Notes under the pieces: model-generated
The model's database searches: none
Told to the model about the DNA's origin: nothing
What the model saw: the letters and a program-made list of their open reading frames with translations, nothing else
Shown here: positions 7,542 to 63,869 of the stretch, piece by piece
Layout: every line of letters starts with the position of its first letter
How positions within the stretch are numbered: position 1 is the first letter of the stretch
Position numbers and translations under genes: made by a program
Virus record (IMG/VR): IMGVR_UViG_3300035670_000139
Origin: a virus
Lineage: Duplodnaviria; Heunggongvirae; Uroviricota; Caudoviricetes
Strand: one strand, 5' to 3'
Length of the DNA: 64,000 nucleotides

Positions 7542-7587
7542 TTTTGAAGTTTATAATATTTTTTATTTTTATTTTTTTTTATAGAAT

Positions 7588-34466: not shown

Positions 34467-35576
34467 TTAATTGCAAAATAGTTTAGATTTTAAAATATTA
34501 ACTAACCAATTGTCCCAATATTTAGTATCGCACTTTTCTGGAAATGTTGAATTTTTACTTAAATCTTGAACTTTTTCTATTAACTCTTCTAATTTTACAT
34601 TTATCTTATCATCAATATAATGAAATTCCCCTTGTTTAATTTTTAGTAAAAATTCTTTTTCTTGTAATGGATAAATAAGATTTTGTGTTTCATAAATCTC
34701 TTGTAATTGATAACCAGCCCTAAATGCATGATGGATTGCTTTCCAGTCTATATTTTGATTTTGTCTTGCTAATTCAGCTCTTTCTCCAAATTCCTTACAA
34801 AAATGCGACAATGATTTATAAATAGATTCAATATAATCACTTAAATAAAACTTTTTATCAAAAATTTCATAATAAGATTTTTGCAAATCTAATGAATTAT
34901 CTTCATTATAAAATAAATAAGTTTTAGTATATTCTAAATTCGGAATATTTTGTAAATGAAATATAATTTTTGTTCCTTTTACATTAGAATTACCATTAGC
35001 AATAGCTTCTTGATAAGATTTATAAATAGTTGGAACATTTTCTGGTATTGCATTTGTATTGTGAAAGTGAATATGTTTAAGGTATGCTTGAAAAGTCATA
35101 TCTGCTGGAATTTTTTTACTTTCTTCTATTGTTTTTTCACACCATTCAACTATCTTTTTTGCGGTATCTAATCTAGATCCTTTTATAGAGTATTTAGCTG
35201 CTTGCCCTTTGCAATATCCAATATAAGATTTTAAATTCTTAGAATAAAAAAGATGTCTTTTAGCTTTAAGGTCTTCCCAAACATCAGATGTAATTTCTTC
35301 CCATCCTTGTGGGGCATGTAATGTATCTATTGCATAAGTATCTCCATTAATACACAGTTGTATAAAATAATTTAAAGAAAATAATTGGTCATCAATGTCA
35401 GTGTTAGTATTTTTTGAGTGATGATTATTAGTATTATTAGTAATTGTTTTTTGTATTTTTTGCAATAAGTAGTCTTCAAGAGATGGAAGATATATTCCTT
35501 TATAATCTGTATCTGATTTTATTGTATTTGTGCCGTATAAATGAGAACCATGCTTCATTTTCATTAAAATTTTCAT
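34467..35576 (-). CDS. Predicted nucleotidyltransferase (Pol-beta superfamily)
   Basis: N-terminal MKHGSHLYGTNTIKSDTDYKGIY matches the NTase motif hG[SG]-x9-13-[DE]h[DE]h. 369 aa. Confidence 0.45.
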   Translation of the reverse strand: MKILMKMKHGSHLYGTNTIKSDTDYKGIYLPSLEDYLLQKIQKTITNNTNNHHSKNTNTDIDDQLFSLNYFIQLCINGDTYAIDTLHAPQGWEEITSDVWEDLKAKRHLFYSKNLKSYIGYCKGQAAKYSIKGSRLDTAKKIVEWCEKTIEESKKIPADMTFQAYLKHIHFHNTNAIPENVPTIYKSYQEAIANGNSNVKGTKIIFHLQNIPNLEYTKTYLFYNEDNSLDLQKSYYEIFDKKFYLSDYIESIYKSLSHFCKEFGERAELARQNQNIDWKAIHHAFRAGYQLQEIYETQNLIYPLQEKEFLLKIKQGEFHYIDDKINVKLEELIEKVQDLSKNSTFPEKCDTKYWDNWLVNILKSKLFCN

Positions 35577-35722: not shown

Positions 35723-35798
35723 TGGCTCCCTGAGTAGGACTCGAACCTACGACCAAGTGATTAACAGTCACTTGCTCTACCAACTGAGCTATCAGGGA
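35723..35798 (-). tRNA. tRNA-Asn (anticodon GTT)
   Basis: Minus-strand sequence TCCCTGATAGCTCAGTTGGTAGAGCAAGTGACTGTTAATCACTTGGTCGTAGGTTCGAGTCCTACTCAGGGAGCCA. Acceptor stem TCCCTGA/TCAGGGA, D-arm GCTC/GAGC, anticodon loop CTGTTAA, T-arm GTAGG-TTCGAGT-CCTAC, encoded CCA. Confidence 0.8.
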
Positions 35799-43187: not shown

Positions 43188-43289
43188 ATCACCCAACCGC
43201 TAAAGACGATGCGGTTTTACGGATTAGGAAATAAAGTGTGAATCACCCAACCGCTAAAGACGATTGGGCTTCAAGGTTCGTAGCTTTGT

Positions 43290-44450
43290 CTATTGACAAC
43301 AGCTCCCCTCGCTTTTAACGACCATTCCAGCCGCTATGTTTAGACCTTGTCGCAAAATATTTCTACTTGCAAGTAGGTCTCTGTTATGTGTTGTTTCACA
43401 ATTGTCACAAGTCCACTCTCTATCTTTTAAAGTTAGACTTTGATTAATTGTGCCACACACATCGCACATTCTACTTGATGGAAAAAATCTATCAATTATT
43501 ACTAATTGACGACCTTTCCATTTGCACTTATATTTAAGTTGTCGCTTAAATTCGTGCCAACTAACATCCGATATAGCTTGTGCCAATTTATGATTTTTAA
43601 TCATATTAGACACGGCTAAATCTTCCAAACAAATAATTTGGTTTTCATTACTTATTTGGTTTGTTATTTTGTGTAAATAATCTTTTCTGATATTAGAAAT
43701 TTTTAAATGGTATTTTGCAAGTTTTAATTGTCTTTTTTTTCTTATACCGCTACTTTTATTTGATTTACTTAATTGTCTTTGTAAATATTTAAGTTTTTTC
43801 ATTTTGCGTTTTAATGGTTTAATATTTTCATATACCACACCATTGGAGCAAGTTGCAAAATCTTTTATACCTAAATCAATACCTATTGCTTTTTGTAAGT
43901 TATCTAAAGTTTTAACTTCCTTTTCAACAATAATAGAAACATAATATTGATTATTACAATTTTTTGATATAGTAGCAACAACAAATTTGCCATCTAATTT
44001 TCTATGCTCTTTTACTTTTATGCCATTTTTAAACTTTGGAAAATATATTTTATTATTTTCTAGTTTAAAAAATTGCGGAATTGTAAAGCTCTGTTTGTTA
44101 TTTTTATTTTTAAATTTTGGAAATTGATGTGTTTTTCTAAAAAACATTTTGTAACTGCTATCAAGATGTTTTAAAGTTGCTTGTAAAGACTGTGCATTGC
44201 ATTCATTTAACCATTGAAATCCATCTTGTTTTTTTAGCTTGGTTAAATCTTTTGAGTTATCGTAGTAATTTAAACATCCTTTTATTCTTTTAGCTTCAAT
44301 GTTCTCTTTATTATTAATGTAATATTCTTTTCTTTGATTTAAAAAATAGTTCCAAACAAATCTACAACTGCCAAAGTGTTTTGCAAGTAATATTTTTTGC
44401 TCTGCGTTTGGATATATCCTAAACTTATAAGCCATATTTATTACTTGCAT
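43290..44450 (-). CDS. tnpB: TnpB (OMEGA RNA-guided nuclease, RuvC-like plus zinc finger)
   Basis: RuvC-I GIDLGIKDFATCSNG, zinc finger CDVCGTINQ...CDNCETT, and RuvC-III HNRDLLASRNI (D.NAA.NI-like). The catalytic residues appear intact. Confidence 0.85.
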   Translation of the reverse strand: MQVINMAYKFRIYPNAEQKILLAKHFGSCRFVWNYFLNQRKEYYINNKENIEAKRIKGCLNYYDNSKDLTKLKKQDGFQWLNECNAQSLQATLKHLDSSYKMFFRKTHQFPKFKNKNNKQSFTIPQFFKLENNKIYFPKFKNGIKVKEHRKLDGKFVVATISKNCNNQYYVSIIVEKEVKTLDNLQKAIGIDLGIKDFATCSNGVVYENIKPLKRKMKKLKYLQRQLSKSNKSSGIRKKRQLKLAKYHLKISNIRKDYLHKITNQISNENQIICLEDLAVSNMIKNHKLAQAISDVSWHEFKRQLKYKCKWKGRQLVIIDRFFPSSRMCDVCGTINQSLTLKDREWTCDNCETTHNRDLLASRNILRQGLNIAAGMVVKSEGSCCQ

Positions 44451-44500
44451 TTTGTTTTATTATCAATACTATACTATAATTGTAATTTGTATAATTTAAA

Positions 44501-44902
44501 ATGTCAAGTAATATTTCAAAAAATCGTAAAAAATATTTATTAAAAATACATTTAATTTTTGCGTGCAAATATCGTAAAAAATTATTAATTAATCCAATTG
44601 ATAAAGATATTAAGCAGATTATGCTAATAATATCTTCAATATCAGATTTTAAGATTGATATAATGGAAACTGATCAAGACCATATACATCTTTTACTTAA
44701 TATATCACCAAATTATTCAATTAGCAGTATAGTTAATCGTTTAAAATCTATTTCAACAAATATGATATGGAAAAAACATCACAATCTGTTAGTAAAACAT
44801 TTTTGGAAAGAAAAAACATTTTGGAGTGATGGATATTTTGTTAATTCTATTGGCAATGCAAACTTGGAAACAGTAAGACATTATATTGAAAATCAAGGTT
44901 AA
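44501..44902 (+). CDS. tnpA: IS200/IS605 HuH tyrosine transposase TnpA
   Basis: HuH motif HIHLLL and a catalytic Tyr in WSDGYFVNSIG. 133 aa. Confidence 0.9.
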   Translation: MSSNISKNRKKYLLKIHLIFACKYRKKLLINPIDKDIKQIMLIISSISDFKIDIMETDQDHIHLLLNISPNYSISSIVNRLKSISTNMIWKKHHNLLVKHFWKEKTFWSDGYFVNSIGNANLETVRHYIENQG

Positions 44903-45002
44903 AATCCTTACATCCGCACCGCTAAAGACGATGAGGTTTTACGGATTAGGATATAAATATAGTGTTTGAACTACCAAAGAAATTTTGGTAGTTAAATGAA
45001 TA

Positions 45003-46375: not shown

Positions 46376-47194
46376 ATGGATTATCGTGATAGACCACAAC
46401 TTCAACTAAAGCATATTGCTATAGGCATTATAGGTATTGTTGCAGTCTCAACTCTTATAGGTAGTTTTAAAATCATTAAAACCTCTCAAGTTGGTATTAA
46501 ATCAAGATTTGGCTTAGTATCTAACAATATTTTAGAAGAGGGATTTCATTTTAAAATACCTTTTGTTGATAGTATTGAAAAAATATCACTTAAGCAACAT
46601 CAAGAAAATTTTACAATAGAAAATACACAAACAAAAGATTTGCAGCCAGTTAGCGTATCATATAAAGTTATCTATTCTATACCTGCAAGTAAAGTGATAT
46701 ACAATAAAAAAAGCTTAAATGGGGATATTTTTGAAGTATTGATAAAACCAAGAGCAAATGAAACTATTATGAATGTGTTAGCAACTTATCCAGCTGAGGA
46801 TTTAATAAGTAATCGTGATGCCGTAATATCAATGGTAAAAAAGAAATTAGCAGAAAGAGTAACGGAGCACGCTAATATTGATGATATTTCTATTACAGAT
46901 TATCAGTTCCAAGATACGAGGTTTACAGCGGCAGTGCAAAATAAAGTTGTTGCTAAACAAAACGCTCAATCAGCGGAAATTAAAAAACAACAAGCACAAG
47001 CCGAAGCAGACCAAATATTAATTAAAGCAAAAGCAGATGCGGAATCTATTAAAATTAAAGCAAATGCCCTTTCCAATAATCCAAAGTTAGTTGATTTAAC
47101 AATTGCTGAAAAATGGGATGGTAAAGCCCCTACAAGTGTTGTAATTACTGGCGGCAATCCAAGTAATTTAATTTTACCTATTAAGTCTAATTAG
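46376..47194 (+). CDS. SPFH/band-7 (stomatin/prohibitin/HflKC-like) membrane protein
   Basis: N-terminal TM segment, then QVGIKSRFGLVSNNILEEGFHFKIPFVDSIEKISLKQ (SPFH signature), then a coiled coil (AKQNAQSAEIKKQQAQAEADQILIKAKADAESIKIKA). Confidence 0.6.
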   Translation: MDYRDRPQLQLKHIAIGIIGIVAVSTLIGSFKIIKTSQVGIKSRFGLVSNNILEEGFHFKIPFVDSIEKISLKQHQENFTIENTQTKDLQPVSVSYKVIYSIPASKVIYNKKSLNGDIFEVLIKPRANETIMNVLATYPAEDLISNRDAVISMVKKKLAERVTEHANIDDISITDYQFQDTRFTAAVQNKVVAKQNAQSAEIKKQQAQAEADQILIKAKADAESIKIKANALSNNPKLVDLTIAEKWDGKAPTSVVITGGNPSNLILPIKSN

Positions 47195-47211: not shown

Positions 47212-47634
47212 ATGCAAAAACCATCTTATTATGCAAAACTTGCAATAGACCCGCTTGAATATGCTTACAAAAATAAATTAAATCCATACCAATTTAATGC
47301 AATTAAATACATTACTCGCTACAAAGATAAAAATGGTATAGAAGATTTACAAAAAGCAATACATTGCTTAGAAGAGTTTAAAGAAATACTATGTCAAAAC
47401 AATACAAATCCAACAGTTAGTGAAGTTAGTGCAGAAGTTAAGTTTGCAATAGACCCTTTTGAATACGCTTATAAAAATAAACTAAATGAATATGAGGTGA
47501 ATGCTATTGGATATATAACTTACTCTGCTCTGGAAAAAGCAATAACTATTTTACAGAAATACTCCGCTCTAGAAAAAGCAATAACTATTTTACAGAAATT
47601 AATTCAAATTGAAACAGAAAATCAAAAACTATAA
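47212..47634 (+). CDS. DUF3310-like phage protein with internal duplications
   Basis: AIDPLEYAYKNKLNPYQFNAIKYITRYKDKNGIEDLQKAIHCLEEF matches the DUF3310 pattern. The motif repeats (AIDPFEYAYKNKLNEYEVNAIGYIT), and a 39-bp tandem duplicate at 47521-47598 (YSALEKAITILQK x2) follows. Confidence 0.5.
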   Translation: MQKPSYYAKLAIDPLEYAYKNKLNPYQFNAIKYITRYKDKNGIEDLQKAIHCLEEFKEILCQNNTNPTVSEVSAEVKFAIDPFEYAYKNKLNEYEVNAIGYITYSALEKAITILQKYSALEKAITILQKLIQIETENQKL

Positions 47635-47636
47635 CA

Positions 47637-47897
47637 ATGGACACCAAGACGATAAACAATCGATGGAGATATCGTAGACGGATAGCAATCACATCCGCTA
47701 TCTTTTTGTTTTTACTTGAGATTGTTGCTATTGCTAAATTAATATCTTTGCCTTTTGACAAACTTACAATGGAGCATGTGATTTTCTTTGTTATAGCAAC
47801 AATACCACTTCTTGCTATTGTATTAGTTTATTTCATTGCATCAACTTTTGATGATGTTAAGGTGTTTTTGATTGATAGATTAAAACACAAAGATTAA
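47637..47897 (+). CDS. Small membrane protein
   Basis: 86 aa with two TM helices. Confidence 0.4.
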   Translation: MDTKTINNRWRYRRRIAITSAIFLFLLEIVAIAKLISLPFDKLTMEHVIFFVIATIPLLAIVLVYFIASTFDDVKVFLIDRLKHKD

Positions 47898-49000
47898 CTA
47901 TGGGCAGCTTTGTATAACATATCGTAGTGGTCTTCAAAAAAAGCATCCTTACCCATTTTTAAAGCATCCCAAGCTTCAATCCACTCAACACTACTTGCAT
48001 CATCTCCAGCTTTTACTGCATTAATATCATAGTCTTTTGGTAATAATGTAGTATAGAGTGTTGTAATTACTCTACCACGACGACTACGATTTGGGTTGTC
48101 AAAATTGCAGAATAACCGCACATGTAGACGATCAGCTATAACTAACCCAGTCTCTTCTTTTAACTCACGCAAAGCACATTCTTTTAATGTTTCATTTTGA
48201 TTAACAAACCCACCTGGTAAAGCATAAAGTCCTTTGCCAGGTGTTTTACCCCTTTTAATTAATAATACTTTACATTCGTAATTATGGTATTGAAATACTG
48301 CAATATCAGCAGTGTGCTCTATGCGAGGATATTGCTTAACTTCTTCTTGATAGTTTGCATAATAGACATCGTCCTCAGTAATTAAACCTGCCTCAATGTA
48401 TTTTTTTTGCATTTCAAGATAGTCATTCATAGAAAGCCAAAAACAAATGTATTTTTTTTGCATTTCAAGGTAATCATCCATAGAAAACCAAAACCACGAG
48501 TATTGTTTAAAAACTGGCGTATTTGTAAAAAATTCTTTTCTTTTATCTTTTGCACTTATCACTTTACCATTTTCTAAATACGGCTCAACTTCAATCACAT
48601 TATCAAAGATTTTAGCATCTTTAATTAAGTCAATATAATTTGCTGTTTTATCATCTTTTTTGCAAGTAATTAAGTTAATTTGACTATCTTTATTGTTGTT
48701 TTTTATATCTTGTATTGTGTTTTTAATGCAATTTATCCATTCTGCGTCAGTGTCGCAATCTTGAACTGGTAATATTTCTTTTACCTTATTTGTTGGCCAT
48801 AAGCATTTACACAAAATTTTAATGTCTAACTCGTGTTTTCGCTCTTCAAAAGTAAATGGATTGCAAACATCTCTTGATTTATCAGCCGAACCAACTAAGA
48901 TATAAACTTCACTATAATTTTCACAAGCTTTTGCTATTAAAGCTAAATGCCCCTCGTGAACTAATTGAAATCTACCTAAAACGACATTAATAATTTTCAT
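47894..49000 (-). CDS. natV: Bifunctional NMN adenylyltransferase / Nudix hydrolase (NatV-like)
   Basis: N-terminal H-x-G-H nucleotidyltransferase motif (GRFQLVHEGHLAL). C-terminal Nudix box GKGLYALPGGFVNQNETLKECALRELKEETGL. A 17-aa in-frame tandem duplication lies in the linker (48397-48498). Confidence 0.8.
   Translation of the reverse strand: MKIINVVLGRFQLVHEGHLALIAKACENYSEVYILVGSADKSRDVCNPFTFEERKHELDIKILCKCLWPTNKVKEILPVQDCDTDAEWINCIKNTIQDIKNNNKDSQINLITCKKDDKTANYIDLIKDAKIFDNVIEVEPYLENGKVISAKDKRKEFFTNTPVFKQYSWFWFSMDDYLEMQKKYICFWLSMNDYLEMQKKYIEAGLITEDDVYYANYQEEVKQYPRIEHTADIAVFQYHNYECKVLLIKRGKTPGKGLYALPGGFVNQNETLKECALRELKEETGLVIADRLHVRLFCNFDNPNRSRRGRVITTLYTTLLPKDYDINAVKAGDDASSVEWIEAWDALKMGKDAFFEDHYDMLYKAAHS
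48397..48498 (-). repeat. 51-bp x2 in-frame tandem duplication inside natV
   Basis: atgtattttttttgcatttcaag[a/g]ta[g/a]tcat[t/c]catagaaa[g/a]ccaaaa.. repeated, encoding FSMDDYLEMQKKYICFW / LSMNDYLEMQKKYIEAG. Confidence 0.85.
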
Positions 49001-49028
49001 AGTTAAACAAAAAAATAAAAATAAAAAA

Positions 49029-50027
49029 CTATTCTAAAATATTTCGCATTGCAACGTTAATTGCATCACTGCGTAATATTTGTTGTAAATATTCCCGTTT
49101 ATCTGATTGTAAATATTCACACATCATTTTATATCCTGCACCTTCTAAACCATAAGTCTTTACTGGTTTAAACAATGAAAAATCATAACCCATATCGTGC
49201 ATTTTTAATATATTTAAAAGATTTTCCGAGTTTTGTTTAAAAATACTTTTCCATAATACTCTATTTGATTGACACAATCTAAATAAATTTTTTTGCAAAT
49301 ATTCGTGTTCTACCCAGTCTTGTGATATTTGCTGTAGGGCATTATTTAATTCAGTATCGTGTTCTTTATTAATTATATCATTTAATGCAAAACAAAATAA
49401 TTGTGGAAAGTGTGAAGTCCAAGCAACAATTTTATCGTGCAGTTTAAGTGTATCACAGGTTGAAGGTTGTATTGTAATTTGTGCATTTTCAACAATATCT
49501 TGCCACATTATAATCATTAAACAATATGGCATATAACAATATAAGCGGTCTATATTATTATATTTTGTAAAAATAACTGTATTCCCCCCTTTATGTAAAT
49601 CTGCTTTACTATTTATAAAACCTGTTTTTTCGCTACCTGCCATAATATGAACGGATGTAAAATTATTATTATCACACCATTTTGATATCCAATTTTTTAC
49701 TGAACTTACATCGCATACATGTAATGCTAAAGTAAATATTTGTAATTCAAACTCAAGATGTATTCTTACATTATCACTTGGAGGTGTTGCAACAATTGCA
49801 ATATCAAATAAATTTTCTTGAAAATCTGCAGGATTGTATTGTTTTGGCTCAATATCAATGCTTCTACAATAATTAATAAAACTTTCCATATTGTCTTCAG
49901 ACATATATGGGTCGTAAATTGTTACATCATAAACACGCTCACCTTCTTGATGTATTTCTGTTAATCTTTTAAAAATAGAGCCTCCAATTAAACCAATTCC
50001 AATAATTAAAACTTTTTGCATAATCAA
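49029..50027 (-). CDS. Prephenate/arogenate dehydrogenase (TyrA)-family NAD(P)-binding protein
   Basis: N-terminal Rossmann motif VLIIGIGLIGGSI. TyrA core motifs HIMAGSEKTG (HPMAGSE.sG) and LHDKIVAWTSHFPQL (HD..vA.vSHLPH). Confidence 0.55.
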   Translation of the reverse strand: MIMQKVLIIGIGLIGGSIFKRLTEIHQEGERVYDVTIYDPYMSEDNMESFINYCRSIDIEPKQYNPADFQENLFDIAIVATPPSDNVRIHLEFELQIFTLALHVCDVSSVKNWISKWCDNNNFTSVHIMAGSEKTGFINSKADLHKGGNTVIFTKYNNIDRLYCYMPYCLMIIMWQDIVENAQITIQPSTCDTLKLHDKIVAWTSHFPQLFCFALNDIINKEHDTELNNALQQISQDWVEHEYLQKNLFRLCQSNRVLWKSIFKQNSENLLNILKMHDMGYDFSLFKPVKTYGLEGAGYKMMCEYLQSDKREYLQQILRSDAINVAMRNILE

Positions 50028-50043
50028 AAATAAAAATAAAAAA

Positions 50044-51309
50044 TTAAATCAATATTCCGTCTTTTGCAGAGTAGACTAAATCCATTTTAGAAGTGTCAAT
50101 CCTTCCTTTAATAGATTTTTTACCGCTATCGGTAATCGGGTCTTTGTAGACATCTTGCCAAACTTCTTTTCCGTCTATATTCAGACAAATTGCAGATGTT
50201 TTATAAGCAAATTTTAAAGTATCCCTACTGCAATTTTGCATTAAATCACCACCAGAGCCAAAGACAAAATTAGCAGGTGAAAACATTTTATCAGTAAAGT
50301 GTTGTAAAATATTTTCTATTTGCTTTGCGGTAATACCATCTCCCCAAAGAATACGATATTTTTTAAATAATTTGTAACCTTTGTCATTTGTAGTAAATTG
50401 CACTTTATTTTTATCAAAAATTTCTAACATTTTTGTAATAACTTCAATAGGGTTGCCACTGTCAGGTCTAATAACCCAAATCGGATAAGAATTACTTTCA
50501 ATTCTATCTTTCATGGAACCTGATGTTTGAAAATCTGTTGCTTTGTAAATATCATAGCTATCAGATACACAAGCGACAATAGAATAACTTTTAAATGTTT
50601 CTAATAAATTTTCCATTGCTTTAAATTCATTTTCCCTGCCCCAGCTCGTAATAGTTGAATGCTCCGATGCAGGAACGGAAAAGCCAGTTTTTGCATGTAA
50701 GACTGCATTAAAGTTATCAGTCCCTTTAAATTGAGTTAAATGAGCCATGCCACCTATTTTAGCACTTTCAACACTACTTGAACCTCTATCTCCAAAGTTG
50801 TGATAAGCAAAATCAACCCCAGCCACATCCTCGCCAGCTTTTTGATAAAAAGATGTTATCATTTGTTTAATGTAATAACATCTTGTTGCTATTGTAGTCG
50901 GATACCAAAGTTTCAACAAGTAAGTTTCTAAAAAAGAAGGCAACCAAAAATAGTTGTTATCGGTATTTTCTACAACAAGCAAAGGTTGTGAAATGTCGTG
51001 TAATTCATTTTCTTTTACCGCATATATATTGATAGGTAAATGTATATGTCCTTTTTTATTTTGTAAATTCAAACCATCAAAACCTTCTTTGTTATATGGT
51101 AAGCCATGTTGCTCTACAAGTTTTTGCCAATCTATTAGTCCATTTTGATATGTATTTAAACCATATAAATGTTCTTTTAAACCAGTAAAAAACACTTTTT
51201 TGAAGCCTTCGTCTGAGCCTCTGGCGGAAAGATAACAATGTATTTTTTTTGTGTTTTTAGGGTATTGTAAATAATGTGAAAATTTGTAAGAGTCCGTTAA
51301 GTGTAGCAT
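50044..51309 (-). CDS. nadV: Nicotinamide phosphoribosyltransferase (NAMPT/NadV)
   Basis: N-terminal LHLTDSYKFSHYLQYPKNTKKIHCYLSARGS matches NAMPT (NTDSYK.tHy.QYP). 421 aa. Confidence 0.8.
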   Translation of the reverse strand: MLHLTDSYKFSHYLQYPKNTKKIHCYLSARGSDEGFKKVFFTGLKEHLYGLNTYQNGLIDWQKLVEQHGLPYNKEGFDGLNLQNKKGHIHLPINIYAVKENELHDISQPLLVVENTDNNYFWLPSFLETYLLKLWYPTTIATRCYYIKQMITSFYQKAGEDVAGVDFAYHNFGDRGSSSVESAKIGGMAHLTQFKGTDNFNAVLHAKTGFSVPASEHSTITSWGRENEFKAMENLLETFKSYSIVACVSDSYDIYKATDFQTSGSMKDRIESNSYPIWVIRPDSGNPIEVITKMLEIFDKNKVQFTTNDKGYKLFKKYRILWGDGITAKQIENILQHFTDKMFSPANFVFGSGGDLMQNCSRDTLKFAYKTSAICLNIDGKEVWQDVYKDPITDSGKKSIKGRIDTSKMDLVYSAKDGILI

Positions 51310-51326
51310 AATTAAAAATAAAAAAA

Positions 51327-52124
51327 TTACAAAGCATTATTAAAAATATCAAAACAATCAATAACTTGCAACTTCTCGTTATCTTGCGGTTCAAGAATAC
51401 TTGTTGAGTTTGTTGTGATAATTTTGTTGATATTGTTACATATTTTTTGCATTTTATATCCATAAATTTCATTATCATACATTCTATCTATTTTTGATGG
51501 TCGTATTGTTTTAATTAAAAATCTTTTCGGAACAAAACAATGCAACACAAACACATTCACCTCCTCAACTCCGTATTTTTCTTTCAACTCTTTGGCGATT
51601 TGATTTGCTTTTTGAAGCTCGGATTGTGTGCCGTGATGGAGGAAGATTGTAAGTTTTGTAAAATCTTCTATTCCAGTGCAATCCGAAGAAGTGCAAACTA
51701 ATTTATTACAACGATGTTCTATTTTAGGATAAACAAATACACGAGAATAATCTATAGTATTTGTTAATTTGTCCGTGTAATATGTTTCGCAATCCTCACT
51801 ACTCAAAAACAAAACCGCATTATCCTCAGGGATATATTTTGAAAGGTTGGGAGTTATGTCGTCTAAAGTATAAATATTTTCAAACGATGGTAAAAAATCA
51901 ACTGCAGCAACATTTGGAAAGTAAGGTAAATATAGATTACAAAATTCAGTATAAGGATATAATTGTAAAAATGGAGTTATATCTAAAAATGGATTTAGTT
52001 CCCCAACCTTCAAATCAATATACAAATCTTTTGCATTTGTAAAATCAAAAGCCTTAGTGCATTCCTTGTCTTTAAAAAACTCAACTTCTAAAAGCTCATT
52101 GCGTTTGTGGTATATTTTTTGCAT
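51327..52124 (-). CDS. Paralog family A, copy 1 (unknown function; conserved C-terminal ITTNSTSILEPQ..KLQVIDCFDIF module)
   Basis: 265 aa. N-terminus MQKIYHKRNELLEVEF matches copy 2. The final ~97 bp is ~96% identical to a segment in copy 2. Confidence 0.55.
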   Translation of the reverse strand: MQKIYHKRNELLEVEFFKDKECTKAFDFTNAKDLYIDLKVGELNPFLDITPFLQLYPYTEFCNLYLPYFPNVAAVDFLPSFENIYTLDDITPNLSKYIPEDNAVLFLSSEDCETYYTDKLTNTIDYSRVFVYPKIEHRCNKLVCTSSDCTGIEDFTKLTIFLHHGTQSELQKANQIAKELKEKYGVEEVNVFVLHCFVPKRFLIKTIRPSKIDRMYDNEIYGYKMQKICNNINKIITTNSTSILEPQDNEKLQVIDCFDIFNNAL

Positions 52125-52130
52125 ATAATA

Positions 52131-52547
52131 CTATAAATAAGTTTTGATAATTTCATTAATATCATTCTCTGTTATTACTCCACCAGTTTTTACTCTAATT
52201 CTTAAATTTCGCAAAACAGCAGAGTAGTTATATGGTAAAGCAATAAGGCTATTAGCTAAAACTTCACTATATTTTCCACCATATAATTTGTTATCATATT
52301 CCGATTGCCACACTTTTGCTATTTCTCGTAATCCATCCAAGCATCTCTTAATTTCAAACACTTCTGGCAAGTCTTCATCGTTTTCCGTTATAATAGAAAT
52401 CAACTCAGATATTCTATCTAAAAAAGGACACACCACATAAAGTTCATTTTTACTATTTCTAATTTTAAGCGGTGGAACATTTTTCTTTTTTGTCATATAA
52501 TAATTAAGAAATTTCTGTAAAAGTTTCATATAAAGATAACGCCCCAA
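52131..52547 (-). CDS. Paralog family B, copy 1 (unknown function)
   Basis: 138 aa. The N-terminal YMKLLQKFLNYY is shared with the ORF at 53697-54011. Confidence 0.45.
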   Translation of the reverse strand: MGRYLYMKLLQKFLNYYMTKKKNVPPLKIRNSKNELYVVCPFLDRISELISIITENDEDLPEVFEIKRCLDGLREIAKVWQSEYDNKLYGGKYSEVLANSLIALPYNYSAVLRNLRIRVKTGGVITENDINEIIKTYL

Positions 52548-52697: not shown

Positions 52698-52890
52698 AAT
52701 TACAAAGCATCATTAAAAACATCAAAACAATCAATCACCTGCAACCTCTCGGTATTTTTAGGTTTAAGAAGTCCTGTTGAGTTAGTTGTTATGAAAGCAT
52801 CATTAAAAATATCAAAACAATCAATAACTTGCAACTTCTCGTTATCTTGCGGTTCAAGAATACTTGTTGAGTTTGTTGTTATGATTTTGT
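52698..52890 (-). repeat. ~96-bp tandem duplication of the A-family 3' coding end (third copy at 51326-51428)
   Basis: 52794-52890 is ~96% identical to 51326-51428, and 52698-52795 is a more diverged copy. Together they encode IITTNSTSILEPQDNEKLQVIDCFDIFNDA / FITTNSTGLLKPKNTERLQVIDCFDVFNDAL. Confidence 0.85.
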
Positions 52891-53662
52891 CAAAAGGCAA
52901 TTTTGATATATACTCTTTTTGTCTTTTTGTAAAATCTTCTTTAAAACTTTTTTCACTACCTACAATGATACCAATATCAATACAAAATTTGTATGCCTCA
53001 TCTGCTGACTTAGAATACATTTCGTTAGCAAAAGACATATAACTTTGTTCCAAATCACTTTCTTCTAAAAAACAGTGTAATCTAAACAAATTTACTTCTT
53101 TAACTCCGTATTTTTCTTTCAACTCTTTGGCAACTTCATTTGCTTTTTGAAGTTCAGCTTGTGTGCCATGATGGAGGAAGATGGTTACTTTATTAATAGG
53201 ATTTTTTACAAACTCATTAATAGCATCAATACTTCCTTTAAGTGTTACTTCATCAAGCCCATCATTAGCATAAAGTCCAATATAATGACCTTGAAAACAT
53301 TGCATATATCTTTCACAGTTCTCACCACTCAAAAACAAAACTGCATTATCCTCAGGGATGTATTTTGATAAATTAAATTTATATCCAGTCTCGTCACATT
53401 GTATATCATTTAAAGTTATTAAAAGAATTTTTGAATTAAAGTTATCTTTATATCCTAAATACCAACATGGAGTGTATATTACTGCACTTAAATCTAAAGC
53501 AAAAAGTTTATTACTTAAAGCTATAGCTGGAGTGCAATCCCCATCCTTCAACTCAATATACAAATCTTTTACATCCGTAAAATCAAAAGGGATTTTGCAG
53601 TCTTTATCTTGGTAAAACTCAACTTCTAAAAGCTCGTTGCGTTTGTGGTATATTTTTTGCAT
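52700..53662 (-). CDS. Paralog family A, copy 2 (320 aa; C-terminal module duplicated in tandem)
   Basis: Shares the N-terminus, the PEDNAVLFLS[SG]E[DN]CE motif, TIFLHHGTQ[SA]ELQKAN[QE][IV]AKELKEKYGV and the C-terminal module with copy 1. Confidence 0.55.
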   Translation of the reverse strand: MQKIYHKRNELLEVEFYQDKDCKIPFDFTDVKDLYIELKDGDCTPAIALSNKLFALDLSAVIYTPCWYLGYKDNFNSKILLITLNDIQCDETGYKFNLSKYIPEDNAVLFLSGENCERYMQCFQGHYIGLYANDGLDEVTLKGSIDAINEFVKNPINKVTIFLHHGTQAELQKANEVAKELKEKYGVKEVNLFRLHCFLEESDLEQSYMSFANEMYSKSADEAYKFCIDIGIIVGSEKSFKEDFTKRQKEYISKLPFDKIITTNSTSILEPQDNEKLQVIDCFDIFNDAFITTNSTGLLKPKNTERLQVIDCFDVFNDAL

Positions 53663-53696: not shown

Positions 53697-54011
53697 TCAA
53701 GAAGTATAGTAGTAATCATAACAGTAACTACCATAATAGTCACTACTTTTATTTTCAATATCAAACAATGGTAATTTTTTTTGTTTCATAAATTTATTTG
53801 CTTTTTGTATTGTTTTAATATCTGTTTTTAATGGTCTAAACATGTGTAATGTATTACTATCATCATCGCATATTGTAGCCCAAGGCGATACTTGTTTTGC
53901 GTGAATATGTAATCTATATGGTGGTTTATTATATTTATGGTATGTTGGTTTCTTGTAATAATTAAGAATTTTTTGTAAAAGTTTCATATAAAAATAATAA
54001 AAACTAACCAA
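53697..54011 (-). CDS. Paralog family B, copy 2 (104 aa, diverged)
   Basis: Shares the N-terminal YMKLLQKILNYY with B1. Confidence 0.4.
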   Translation of the reverse strand: MVSFYYFYMKLLQKILNYYKKPTYHKYNKPPYRLHIHAKQVSPWATICDDDSNTLHMFRPLKTDIKTIQKANKFMKQKKLPLFDIENKSSDYYGSYCYDYYYTS

Positions 54012-61190: not shown

Positions 61191-61862
61191 TTACAAATGA
61201 TTTGTTGTTTTGTCAAGATTTAATTGCAACTCAAGATATTTAGTAATGTATTTTTTACGGATTTCTTCTGCTTTTGCGTAAATCTTGTCTATATCAAGAC
61301 CAAACAAATCTTCTTTTTTCAACTTATCAAAATAGCCTTTTATTAAAAAACTTTCAATTTTACATCCAAAAGTATTGTATTTATCGCAGACAAATTTCCA
61401 AGGTGAGCCATCTTGATGCGACCAATTACTTAATTCTAAAGCTTTTTTCTTTGGAATGTTGCTGGCAATAAACTCTTGCAAGATGTACTTCATTATCTCC
61501 TCATCTCTTTGCCTGGATATACTCTTGCCTTCTTTTACTTCGTAAAATGGTTTGTAGTTCACGCTAAAAGCTTCGGTAGTTAATTGAGAATAGTTTTGGT
61601 AAATATTTTTAAAAACAGGTCCATATGGCCAAGCTTCAGGTAGTTCGTCAAACAGAGATAGAACAACTTTTCCTTCATTGTTTAACACCGATGTTTTTGG
61701 TATCATGTCAACCTTTAAAGCAACTCCCATTACTATATACATTATTTTTTGCAATTTTGTGTTGCTAAGCTCAACATTTTTACCTTTTGGTGTATTTTCA
61801 TTACCAATATTGTATATATCCATCAAAAAAATTAGGTCTTTTGCTACATCTACGGCTTTCAT
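61191..61862 (-). CDS. Panacea-domain (DUF4065, SocA/PanA-like) antitoxin-type protein
   Basis: TKLQKIMYIVMGVALK...LFDELPEAWPYGPVFKNIYQNY matches the DUF4065 signature (KLQKLLYy..g.....lf.e.feAW.yGPVvp.vY). Confidence 0.55.
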   Translation of the reverse strand: MKAVDVAKDLIFLMDIYNIGNENTPKGKNVELSNTKLQKIMYIVMGVALKVDMIPKTSVLNNEGKVVLSLFDELPEAWPYGPVFKNIYQNYSQLTTEAFSVNYKPFYEVKEGKSISRQRDEEIMKYILQEFIASNIPKKKALELSNWSHQDGSPWKFVCDKYNTFGCKIESFLIKGYFDKLKKEDLFGLDIDKIYAKAEEIRKKYITKYLELQLNLDKTTNHL

Positions 61863-62050: not shown

Positions 62051-62644
62051 ATGGAATTAGTAACAATATCAAAAGCAAAAAAACTACTTGGAGTAACACC
62101 TCAAACAATGCGTAATTGGGATAAAAATGGCAAGATAAAGCCAGTTAAAAGAGCTAAAAATGGTTTTCGCTATTATAATCTATTAGATATACAAAATTTA
62201 GTAAAGCCAAAAAATAAAATGATTATAGGCTATTGTCGTGTATCTTCTAAAAAACAAGAAGATGATTTATGCAGACAAATTGAAAATGTAAAAACATTTA
62301 TGATAGCTAAAGGATATAGTTTTGAAATAATACAGGATATAGGCTCTGGAATTAACTATACTAAAAATGGCTTAAATGAATTAATCACTAAAGTTATTAA
62401 TGGTAATGTTGAGAAAGTTGTTATATTATATAAAGACAGATTGCTGCGTTTTGGATTTGAATTATTAGAAAGCATATTTCAAAAATATAATTGTAAAATT
62501 GAAATTATTGATAATACAGAAAAAACAGAGGAACAAGAATTAGTTGAGGATTTAATACAAATTGTGACAGTTTTTTCTTGTAAATTACAAGGCAAAAGAA
62601 GCAAAAAAACAAAAGCATTAATTAACGAGTTAAAAAATGATTAA
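62051..62644 (+). CDS. tnpA: IS607-type serine recombinase transposase (MerR-like HTH plus resolvase catalytic domain)
   Basis: N-terminal MerR-type HTH (AKKLLGVTPQTMRNWDKNGKIKP..NGFRYY), then catalytic IIGYCRVSSKKQEDDL (Y-x-R-V-S-x-x-x-Q). 197 aa. Confidence 0.8.
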   Translation: MELVTISKAKKLLGVTPQTMRNWDKNGKIKPVKRAKNGFRYYNLLDIQNLVKPKNKMIIGYCRVSSKKQEDDLCRQIENVKTFMIAKGYSFEIIQDIGSGINYTKNGLNELITKVINGNVEKVVILYKDRLLRFGFELLESIFQKYNCKIEIIDNTEKTEEQELVEDLIQIVTVFSCKLQGKRSKKTKALINELKND

Positions 62645-63869
62645 ATCCTTCAAAGTTCGTCTTGAACCAAACAATAAACAAAAATCTTTGTTGTTTGCAA
62701 ATGCAAGTGTTGCAAGATTTGCATACAATTGGACTTTAGAACAACAGCAACTCAATTACAAGAATGGTGGTAAGTTTATTAGTCATTTTGATTTACGCAA
62801 AAAATTAACCCAATTAAAACAAAAAGAACTAAGCTGGCTATACAACTATGATGTTGATATTGTAAAACAAGCAGTAAAAGATGCTTGCGATAGTTATATT
62901 AAATTCTTTAATAAAGGCTTTGGATTTCCAAGATTTAAAAGTAAAAGATTTTCAAAACCTAGTTTTTTTGTTGATAATTATAAAATCAAAATCTTTGAAA
63001 ATAGCATTAAAATTCCAAAACTTAAGTCAAACATAAAATTAAGTGAAAATGGATATATCCCATTGAATGTAAAATATTCTAACCCAAGAATTACTTTTGA
63101 TGGAGTAAATTGGTTTTTATCTGTTGGAGTTGATATTGAAAATGAAATACAAGAACTCACAAATGAAACACTTGGAATTGATGTAGGTTTAAAAGATGCT
63201 TTAATTAGAAGTGATGGAATTATACATAAAAATATCAATAAAACTAAAAAAATTAAAACATTAAGAAAAAAACATAATAAACTTAAAAAATCAATTAGTA
63301 GAAAATATGAAAGAAACAAAATTGGTAAAAAATTTATCAAAACTCAAAATATTAAAAAAGCTGAGTTAAAATCAAATAAACTTTACAAAAAGTTAAACGA
63401 TATACAAACTGACTATTTCAACAAAGTAGCCATTTCAATTGCGAGAACCAAGCCAAAAAAGATTGTTATGGAAAAGTTGAATATTGATGGGATGCGAAAG
63501 AATAAATGTCTTTCAAAAGCCTTTCAAGAAGCTAGTTTGCATAAATTCAAAACTAAAATTCAAAATAAATGTTTGGAGTTTGGGATTGAATTTATTGAGG
63601 CTGGAACATTTTTTCCATCCTCAAAAAGATGTAGTCATTGTGGAGCAATTAAAAAAGACTTGAAATTAAAAGATAGAGTTTTTAAATGCGATACATGCGA
63701 CTTTCAAATAGACAGGGACGAAAACGCAAGTCAAAATCTCAAACAATACCCTGAGTTACAGGGGAATTTAAGCCTTTGGAGTGCTAAATCAAAAGAAAGT
63801 AGTCGCAAGACAAAATCTGGCACCGAGAAGAAGGAAAAAAGCAAAAAACTTAATAGAGTAGCAATATGA
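62637..63869 (+). CDS. tnpB: TnpB (OMEGA RNA-guided nuclease)
   Basis: RuvC-I GIDVGLKDALIRSDG, zinc finger CSHCGAIKK...CDTCDFQ, and RuvC-III DRDENASQNL. 410 aa. Start overlaps tnpA by 8 nt. Confidence 0.85.
   Translation: MIKSFKVRLEPNNKQKSLLFANASVARFAYNWTLEQQQLNYKNGGKFISHFDLRKKLTQLKQKELSWLYNYDVDIVKQAVKDACDSYIKFFNKGFGFPRFKSKRFSKPSFFVDNYKIKIFENSIKIPKLKSNIKLSENGYIPLNVKYSNPRITFDGVNWFLSVGVDIENEIQELTNETLGIDVGLKDALIRSDGIIHKNINKTKKIKTLRKKHNKLKKSISRKYERNKIGKKFIKTQNIKKAELKSNKLYKKLNDIQTDYFNKVAISIARTKPKKIVMEKLNIDGMRKNKCLSKAFQEASLHKFKTKIQNKCLEFGIEFIEAGTFFPSSKRCSHCGAIKKDLKLKDRVFKCDTCDFQIDRDENASQNLKQYPELQGNLSLWSAKSKESSRKTKSGTEKKEKSKKLNRVAI

Follow-up and report, generated by a model that had tools for sequence, protein, structure and literature searches.

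Reconstitution of nicotinamide adenine dinucleotide (NAD+) by phages is a recently recognised form of counter-defence, and the accessory genes that accompany it show how phages manage the rebuilt pool. The pairing of a nicotinamide phosphoribosyltransferase (NAMPT) with a nicotinamide mononucleotide (NMN) adenylyltransferase (NMNAT) was named NARP2 by Osterman et al. (bioRxiv 10.1101/2024.02.11.579819), a study that cites the enzymology of phage KVP40, reports that NARP2 over-produces NAD+ and mentions no dehydrogenase. A later system, NARP3, consists of PnuC and NadR. Here we describe a 64,000-nucleotide stretch of a viral genome (IMG/VR record IMGVR_UViG_3300035670_000139; the whole stretch is referred to below as the window) in which the two genes of such a pair, nadV and natV, flank a gene of the TyrA (prephenate/arogenate dehydrogenase) family. 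This nadV-tyrA-natV arrangement is rare and previously unreported, and was found in a small group of AT-rich freshwater-type phages.

The reading that we favour, with confidence somewhat better than even, is that tyrA is a host-derived auxiliary metabolic gene cassette which encodes an active NAD+-dependent cyclohexadienyl dehydrogenase and is co-transcribed with the NARP2-type pair, without being an obligatory step of NAD+ reconstitution. TyrA would carry out the NAD+-dependent oxidative decarboxylation of prephenate and/or arogenate, yielding 4-hydroxyphenylpyruvate or tyrosine together with CO2 and NADH, and would be expressed alongside the enzymes that supply its own cofactor. The cassette lies in a highly mosaic region whose genes are set apart by near-identical T-rich spacers.

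Layout of the block and the NAD+ pair

The block (47894-51309) consists of three co-directional minus-strand open reading frames (ORFs) in the order nadV, tyrA, natV, with gaps of 22 nt between nadV and tyrA and 28 nt between tyrA and natV. Its features, with the evidence for each, are:

50044..51309, minus strand: nadV, NAMPT, 421 aa (Pfam, PHROG, NCBIfam and PDB matches)
50026..50043, minus strand: T-rich spacer TTTTTTATTTTTATTTTT, 18 nt, directly 3′ of the nadV stop and followed by the GATT-ATG of tyrA (sequence)
49029..50021, minus strand: TyrA-family gene, 330 aa from the ATG at 50021 (Pfam, phmmer, AlphaFold2, Foldseek)
49011..49028, minus strand: second exact copy of the 18-nt T-rich spacer, directly 3′ of the tyrA stop
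47894..49000, minus strand: natV, bifunctional NMN adenylyltransferase / Nudix (ADP-ribose pyrophosphatase-type), 368 aa (Pfam, PHROG, PDB)
48398..48499, minus strand: in-frame tandem duplication (51 bp x2) between the two domains of natV, residues 168-201 (Tandem Repeats Finder)

A scan of the block detected no terminator-like site, and promoter-like sites at chance level only. Because the spacers are this short and no terminator-like site was found within the block, tyrA is probably co-transcribed with nadV and natV.

Pfam searches with all three proteins, a check suggested by an earlier sequence-only reading of this DNA, matched NAMPT_N (2e-12) and NAPRTase (6e-45) in NadV, PDH_N and PDH_C in the middle protein, and CTP_transf_like and NUDIX in NatV. 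NadV also matched PHROG 448 (2e-105), passed the cut-off of NCBIfam NF006629 (414.7 bits; cut-off 405), aligned with bacterial (1e-89) and human (2e-77) NAMPT in the PDB, and is 39% identical to NadV of KVP40. NatV matched PHROG 395 and, over its full length, the Francisella NadM-Nudix protein in the PDB (2qjt, 1.7e-28), with 2qjo also matched. Its translation shows GRFQLVHEGH (HxGH motif) and the Nudix box GGFVNQNETLKECALRELKEETG, and its best NCBIfam bifunctional model scored 168.5, under the cut-off of 397. The two genes characteristic of NARP2, one for a Nampt-clade enzyme and one for a NadM-type Nmnat (here fused to Nudix), thus occur together in one phage; the identification of the outer genes as NAMPT and an NMNAT-Nudix fusion was borne out by the Pfam, PDB and NCBIfam matches, and on sequence grounds they are a NARP2-type pair. 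NadV would convert nicotinamide and phosphoribosyl pyrophosphate to NMN, the N-terminal domain of NatV would form NAD+ from NMN and ATP, and the Nudix domain would hydrolyse ADP-ribose. Other than a generic Nudix match, PADLOC gave no defence-system match for the cluster.

The TyrA-family protein and its cellular relatives

The sequence-only reading had placed a TyrA-family protein between nadV and natV and had staked this on TyrA-fold similarity in profile searches. Indeed, both prephenate dehydrogenase (PDH) domains passed their Pfam gathering scores (PDH_C, 34.9 bits, cut-off 22; PDH_N, 28.6 bits, cut-off 26.5), and phmmer matched the PDH of Aquifex aeolicus in the PDB over its full length (1.4e-8). 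The AlphaFold2 model (pLDDT 77, pTM 0.81) has a predicted Rossmann N-domain and a helical dimerisation C-domain, the fold expected of the family, and ranks 1-28 of its Foldseek matches in the PDB were all prephenate, arogenate or cyclohexadienyl dehydrogenases (E 2e-14 to 7.5e-10). In NCBIfam, the protein matched 12 prephenate dehydrogenase models and no others. By profile and model comparison, the middle gene encodes a real, very diverged TyrA-family enzyme. The ORF had been listed as 49029-50027 with a TTG start at 50027; the ATG at 50021 is the probable true start, given that every homologue opens with MQK or MHK and that the Joint Genome Institute calls a protein of 330 aa.

The GxGxxG, HxMAGSE and HD...SHxP motifs reported from the letters alone were all found in the translation, as G10-x-G12-x-x-G15-G16, H127-I-M-A-G-S-E133 and H197-D198...S205-H206-F-P208. 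G10, G12, G15 and G16 are invariant in the phage TyrA clade and D39 ends beta-2; this combination of GxGxxGG and D39 suggests binding of NAD+ in preference to NADP+. Active-site residues were mapped through the phmmer alignment, with position 1 of the 2g5c chain equal to residue 30 in the Aquifex numbering:

Aquifex S126: window S109
Aquifex H147: window H127
Aquifex T152 / E153: window S132 / E133
Aquifex H214: window H206
Aquifex H217: window Q209
Aquifex K246: window K246
Aquifex D247: window N247
Aquifex R250: window R250
Aquifex S254: window S254
Aquifex W259: window W259

In the Aquifex enzyme, H147 and S126 are the catalytic His and Ser and R250 binds the side-chain carboxylate, and all are kept in the window protein. 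S109, H127, H206, R250, S254 and W259 were invariant in 6/6 clade members, despite only 27-55% identity between the allele types of the clade; with cellular relatives included in the alignment, S109, H127, H206, R250 and W259 were invariant and S254 nearly so. The invariant active-site residues suggest ordinary cyclohexadienyl-dehydrogenase chemistry, and, with activity and substrate deduced from these residues and the predicted fold, TyrA is probably still catalytically competent. Repurposing as some other NAD(P)-binding enzyme, which had been proposed earlier, was not indicated: the residues with which Aquifex PDH binds and oxidises prephenate are invariant in the clade, and nicotinamide-riboside or NMN chemistry, for which no support was found here, appears less likely.

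The nearest relatives of the phage protein outside its clade are cellular. A word-indexed search returned six close relatives only (53-100% identity); the next matches were cellular TyrAs, 26-28% identical. An exhaustive profile search yielded 2553 TyrA-family proteins, only two of them intermediate: P0133 (2e-48) and P0134 (1e-33). P0133, the nearest non-phage relative (36% identity), has a 98% identical counterpart in the freshwater metagenome-assembled genome (MAG) contig CAMCVL010000003.1; it is chromosomal, adjoins mreB in a bacterial MAG and has no NAD genes nearby. The label 'Rickettsia typhi' on this record (L101) looks doubtful, as the record is an environmental sample and encodes a TyrA. 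Because the C-terminal extension of the phage TyrA (~55 residues with a G-x-G-[FY] motif) is common to long cellular TyrAs, the phage gene is best described, from its sequence, as a descendant of a cellular long-form TyrA that had such an extension.

Among viruses the family is rare. The phage TyrA had no match in PHROGs and, as a tblastn query, none in INPHARED; BFVD contained no TyrA fold, and a pattern scan of IMG/VR for the clade returned nothing, a weak negative given how narrow the patterns were. Canonical TyrA queries matched 16 of the 50,697 INPHARED records, all either short unannotated contigs or large contigs with an aroA-tyrA fusion, and these look like host DNA. The literature yielded no description of a prephenate dehydrogenase gene in phages. 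Curated phage genomes appear to be essentially devoid of TyrA-family genes, and this lineage offers a rare phage-borne aromatic-pathway enzyme.

Gene order, mosaicism and neighbouring features

The window is a tailed-phage genome with a GC content of ~28% along its whole 64 kb. It encodes a prohead protease, baseplate J, tail collar, tail-fibre repeats and lysozyme, as well as ThyX, class I ribonucleotide reductase, dUTPase and DNA methylases. Megablast found no close DNA relative of the region in INPHARED; two contigs from other metagenomes (L003, L004) are the same phage as the window or near-identical ones.

The order nadV-tyrA-natV was recovered in four distinct phages, namely the window (also L003 and L004), L001/L002, L005 and L006, and nadV-tyrA in two further truncated contigs (L019, L118). 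In all six distinct arrangements tyrA comes after nadV, and natV follows wherever the contig continues. Variants were also found in which no nadV intervenes: in L017 and L018 tyrA directly follows a 315-aa homologue of the 320-aa gene of the window, and in L119 it directly follows a gene of the 265-aa family, with the spacer 3′ of tyrA broken by an IS200/IS605 end that matches window positions 44906-44938.

The survey of nadV/natV neighbourhoods that the sequence-only reading had proposed covered 80 IMG/VR loci (L021-L100) with NadV homologues at 32-55% identity. natV lay within 8 kb of nadV in 77 of the 80 and upstream of it on the same strand in 74; the gap from natV to nadV exceeded 500 nt in 34 of these 74. 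The order seen in the window, nadV before natV, occurred only in L022, L055 and L068, and in L022 (NadV 55% identity) the two genes overlap without tyrA. In an Ochrobactrum phage three small ORFs lie between natV and nadV. None of the 80 loci contained a PDH gene, the one weak match being a UDP-galactopyranose mutase. The survey extended the link between tyrA and the pair, seen within this lineage, to no other locus. Together with the silence of the NARP2 paper on a dehydrogenase, it agrees with the earlier statement that TyrA lies outside the canonical pathway. The embedding of tyrA is real synteny; however, because genes often intervene between phage natV and nadV, it is weaker evidence of coupling than it appears, and contigs with tyrA and no adjacent nadV exist.

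Sequence conservation differs sharply within the block. NadV of the window is 100%, 97% and 82% identical to that of L001, L005 and L006, whereas TyrA is only 62-77% identical to its counterparts in the same contigs. Window and L001 DNA are ~100% identical from 51400 to ~49450 and then 47-68% identical in the C-terminal part of tyrA, placing a sharp recombination breakpoint inside tyrA at ~49430-49450. Each half of TyrA exists as two allele types that have recombined among relatives, and the last 67 residues are 27% identical between types. The gene upstream of nadV (51400-52000) shares only 55-78% DNA identity with L001. Whole-gene ratios of nonsynonymous to synonymous substitution (dN/dS) for tyrA, 0.41-0.84, are confounded by mosaicism and saturation and were recomputed by segment; within alleles the values were 0.25-0.74 for tyrA and 0.12-0.20 for nadV. 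Selection on tyrA is purifying but relaxed, and the gene evolves faster than its neighbours.

The stop codons of nadV and tyrA are each followed by the exact 18-nt TTTTTTATTTTTATTTTT; these direct repeats flank tyrA. In the window the motif occurs exactly three times, and if up to 2 mismatches are allowed there are five matches, compared with 1.7 expected; T-rich sites of this type lie just upstream of gene starts at 7559-7576, 49011-49028, 50026-50043 and 51308-51325. Near-identical spacers of the type (TTTTTA)n-GATT-ATG precede nadV, tyrA and natV in most relatives examined, and T-rich spacers are also found at the tyrA junctions that have no nadV. No Shine-Dalgarno sequence was visible in the spacers of the window. 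From their sequence and placement the spacers look like cassette boundaries, and the motif may act as a signal for translation or regulation in addition to being a site of recombination.

The in-frame 17-aa tandem duplication noted earlier in the natV linker was confirmed by Tandem Repeats Finder (period 51, 1.9-2.2 copies, 85-91% matches, 48395-48508) and by orthologue comparison. Its copies occupy residues 168-184 (WFWFSMDDYLEMQKKYI) and 185-201 (CFWLSMNDYLEMQKKYI), in the segment that joins the NMNAT domain to the Nudix domain. The duplication was seen in the window and, where aligned, in L003, the same phage from another sample; because the natV orthologues of L001, L005 and L006 are without it, it would be recent and specific to this phage. 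As a feature of natV it is real but not special, because ~6 kb of this plastic region contain three such recent in-frame events, the natV one included. The others are a 90 bp x2 duplication (52704-52884) that repeats the last 30 aa of the 320-aa protein, and a 39 bp x2 duplication (YSALEKAITILQK twice) in the DUF3310 gene (47521-47599).

Upstream of nadV, the minus-strand genes for the 265-aa (51327-52124) and 320-aa (52700-53662) proteins are paralogues with a shared C-terminal ITTNST...VIDCFDIF. They belong to a large phage family (at least 219 proteins or clusters at E <= 0.001). Neither had a match in Pfam, PHROG or NCBIfam, or a sequence match in the PDB. In two other phage contigs examined, members of the family adjoin DNA polymerase III beta or RecT genes and not nadV. 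The AlphaFold2 model of the 265-aa protein matched type I phosphoribosyltransferases at a non-significant E of 0.07-0.5. A Prs/Adps-like role for the paralogues, which would have made the locus a NARP1/NARP2 hybrid, was rejected on the absent family matches, the non-significant fold match and the other neighbourhoods; the 265-aa gene does not supply the Prs-like Adps that stands beside a Nampt-family gene in NARP1, the system of Adps and Namat. Related small ORFs (52131-52547 and 53697-54011) precede the 265-aa and 320-aa genes, and this module of small ORF plus paralogue appears to be tandemly duplicated.

Further accessory genes were noted across the window. An IS200/IS605 element occupies 43290-44902 (TnpA/Y1, 44501-44902; TnpB, 43290-44450), with ends near 43190-43290 and 44906-44960. 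A matching end is inserted directly after tyrA in the related contig L119 (1209-1250), which suggests that the element moves about in this phage population. A second TnpB (with a Cas12f1-like TNB domain) follows a serine recombinase with a MerR helix-turn-helix at 62051-63869, an IS607-like layout. Other genes encode a SocA/Panacea antitoxin-domain protein (61191-61862, minus strand), an SPFH/Band-7 protein (46376-47194, plus strand) and an RlaP-like nucleotidyltransferase (34467-35576, minus strand), the last adjoining tRNA-Asn (35723-35798), the one tRNA found.

Alternative readings and comparison with known systems

Several observations weigh against reading tyrA as an active but dispensable metabolic cassette. 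The gene comes after nadV across TyrA identities of 53-100%, no other phage context was found for it, and so steady a placement beside nadV and natV across diverged relatives would also fit functional coupling. The best NCBIfam model, NF006307, scored 69.4 bits against a cut-off of 295 and all 12 models fell far under theirs, so that the protein can be filed only as a TyrA-family homologue and not as a named prephenate dehydrogenase. Near the active site the clade carries the specific changes P148->I, H217->Q and D247->N, and the canonical GGGF loop before R250 is absent. No chorismate mutase, aminotransferase or other aromatic-pathway gene was found in the 64-kb window, so a tyrosine-supply role would rest wholly on host enzymes. 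An argument from tyrosine demand was also considered and set aside; the encoded proteins contain 4.5% Tyr, too weak a figure to serve as support.

The alternative that survives best, although we consider it unlikely, is that a modified NARP2 employs TyrA as a functional third component, which might for example turn newly made NAD+ into NADH by an irreversible oxidative decarboxylation. NAD+-glycohydrolase effectors, TIR and SIR2 among them, are not known to accept NADH as a substrate. The conversion would shelter the rebuilt pool or buffer it, or reset the NAD+/NADH ratio after NARP2 has over-produced NAD+. This idea agrees with the position of tyrA, which nadV and natV flank in four phages and which comes after nadV in two truncated contigs, at identities as low as 53%; it also agrees with the tight spacers, free of terminator-like sites, and with the Rossmann motif of the NAD+ type. 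With the family essentially absent from other phages, the operon is also its sole viral context, and NARP2 has been reported to over-produce NAD+ (bioRxiv 10.1101/2024.02.11.579819). However, tyrA is present in 0/80 other nadV loci and is not found in the NARP2 phages of INPHARED, some contigs retain it with no nadV directly upstream, and its setting is cassette-like and mosaic with constraint relaxed relative to nadV. The reaction would moreover be limited by the host prephenate supply, and genes often intervene between natV and nadV in other phages.

Rather less probable is that TyrA has been repurposed, acting on another 4-hydroxy-cyclohexadienyl or hydroxy-acid compound or on a molecule related to nicotinamide riboside or NMN. 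The identity of only 22-24% to characterised TyrAs, the missed equivalog cut-offs, the three active-site changes, the lost GGGF loop, the gain of a variable C-terminal tail and the elevated dN/dS would all be expected of such a protein. Kept, however, are the catalytic His/Ser pair, the carboxylate-binding Arg250/Ser254/Lys246 and the Trp259 pocket, as a prephenate-like substrate needs. In addition, the missing GGGF loop, the Q at the H217 position and the C-terminal extension are common also to the nearest cellular TyrAs; they are subfamily traits and not phage innovations.

More doubtful still is the specific proposal that TyrA, as a third component of a NARP2 variant, converts the rebuilt NAD+ to NADH or tunes the pool and so shields it from NAD+-specific immune NADases; if true, it would constitute a new layer of counter-defence from a recruited amino-acid-pathway enzyme. 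That tyrA is a decaying, non-functional passenger of illegitimate recombination is very improbable: relaxed constraint, high mosaicism and the 27% identity of the C-terminal 67 residues between allele types would suit it, but the reading frame is unbroken in every contig that covers it in full, a large number of motif residues do not vary, dN/dS is <1 in all unsaturated comparisons, and tyrA persists in contigs with no nadV upstream of it.

Given the survey, the variants without nadV and the prephenate-type active site, it is less likely that the pathway requires tyrA or that the enzyme acts on a nicotinamide-related compound. Functional coupling of tyrA to NAD+ salvage is unproven, and the data suggest a captured, shuffled metabolic gene and not a proven third pathway step. 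If tyrA is merely an auxiliary gene, the locus offers an uncommon example of genes shuffled in cassette fashion at T-rich spacers; coupling to NAD+ salvage would extend the NARP2 concept. Variants with and without nadV upstream of tyrA occur naturally and could be compared with each other.

Modular gene shuffling at repeated intergenic regulatory cassettes (PeSL) is a feature of T4-type phages. The present region resembles them in that near-identical short intergenic sequences bound genes that vary in presence and order among close relatives, and differs in that its repeats are simple (TTTTTA)n-like T-rich spacers in which the scan gave no promoter or stem-loop.

With Aquifex PDH (PDB 2g5c, 3ggg, 3ggo, 3ggp) and other solved TyrAs, the window protein shares the two-domain fold and the GxGxxG motif (Foldseek E 2e-14; TM-score <=0.62 by query and 0.71 by target), together with equivalents of Ser126, His147, Glu153, His214, Lys246, Arg250, Ser254 and Trp259. 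Unlike them, it is phage-encoded, only 22-24% identical, altered by P148I, H217Q and D247N, and longer by ~55 residues containing G-x-G-Y. The long-form P0133 shares SHLPQL, FRLC-S-W and a C-terminal G-T-G-F extension with the phage TyrA; HIMAGSE of the phage clade corresponds to HPIAGK in P0133, which is chromosomal beside mreB.

Window NatV has the full-length bifunctional NMNAT-Nudix architecture of the Francisella and Synechocystis NadM-Nudix proteins (2qjt, 2qjo), but differs in its 17-aa inter-domain duplication, a segment that aligns with gaps. The same two enzyme families, with a NatV of NMNAT plus Nudix architecture, are found in NARP2 and KVP40. The window showed no partner resembling Adps or Prs, as would be expected of NARP2 rather than NARP1. 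The KVP40 annotation lists no natV in the ~3 kb flanking nadV on either side. The window is distinguished from NARP2 as described by its order, nadV before natV, the reverse of that in most phages (natV upstream in 74/80 IMG/VR loci), and by the TyrA-family gene that its nadV and natV flank.

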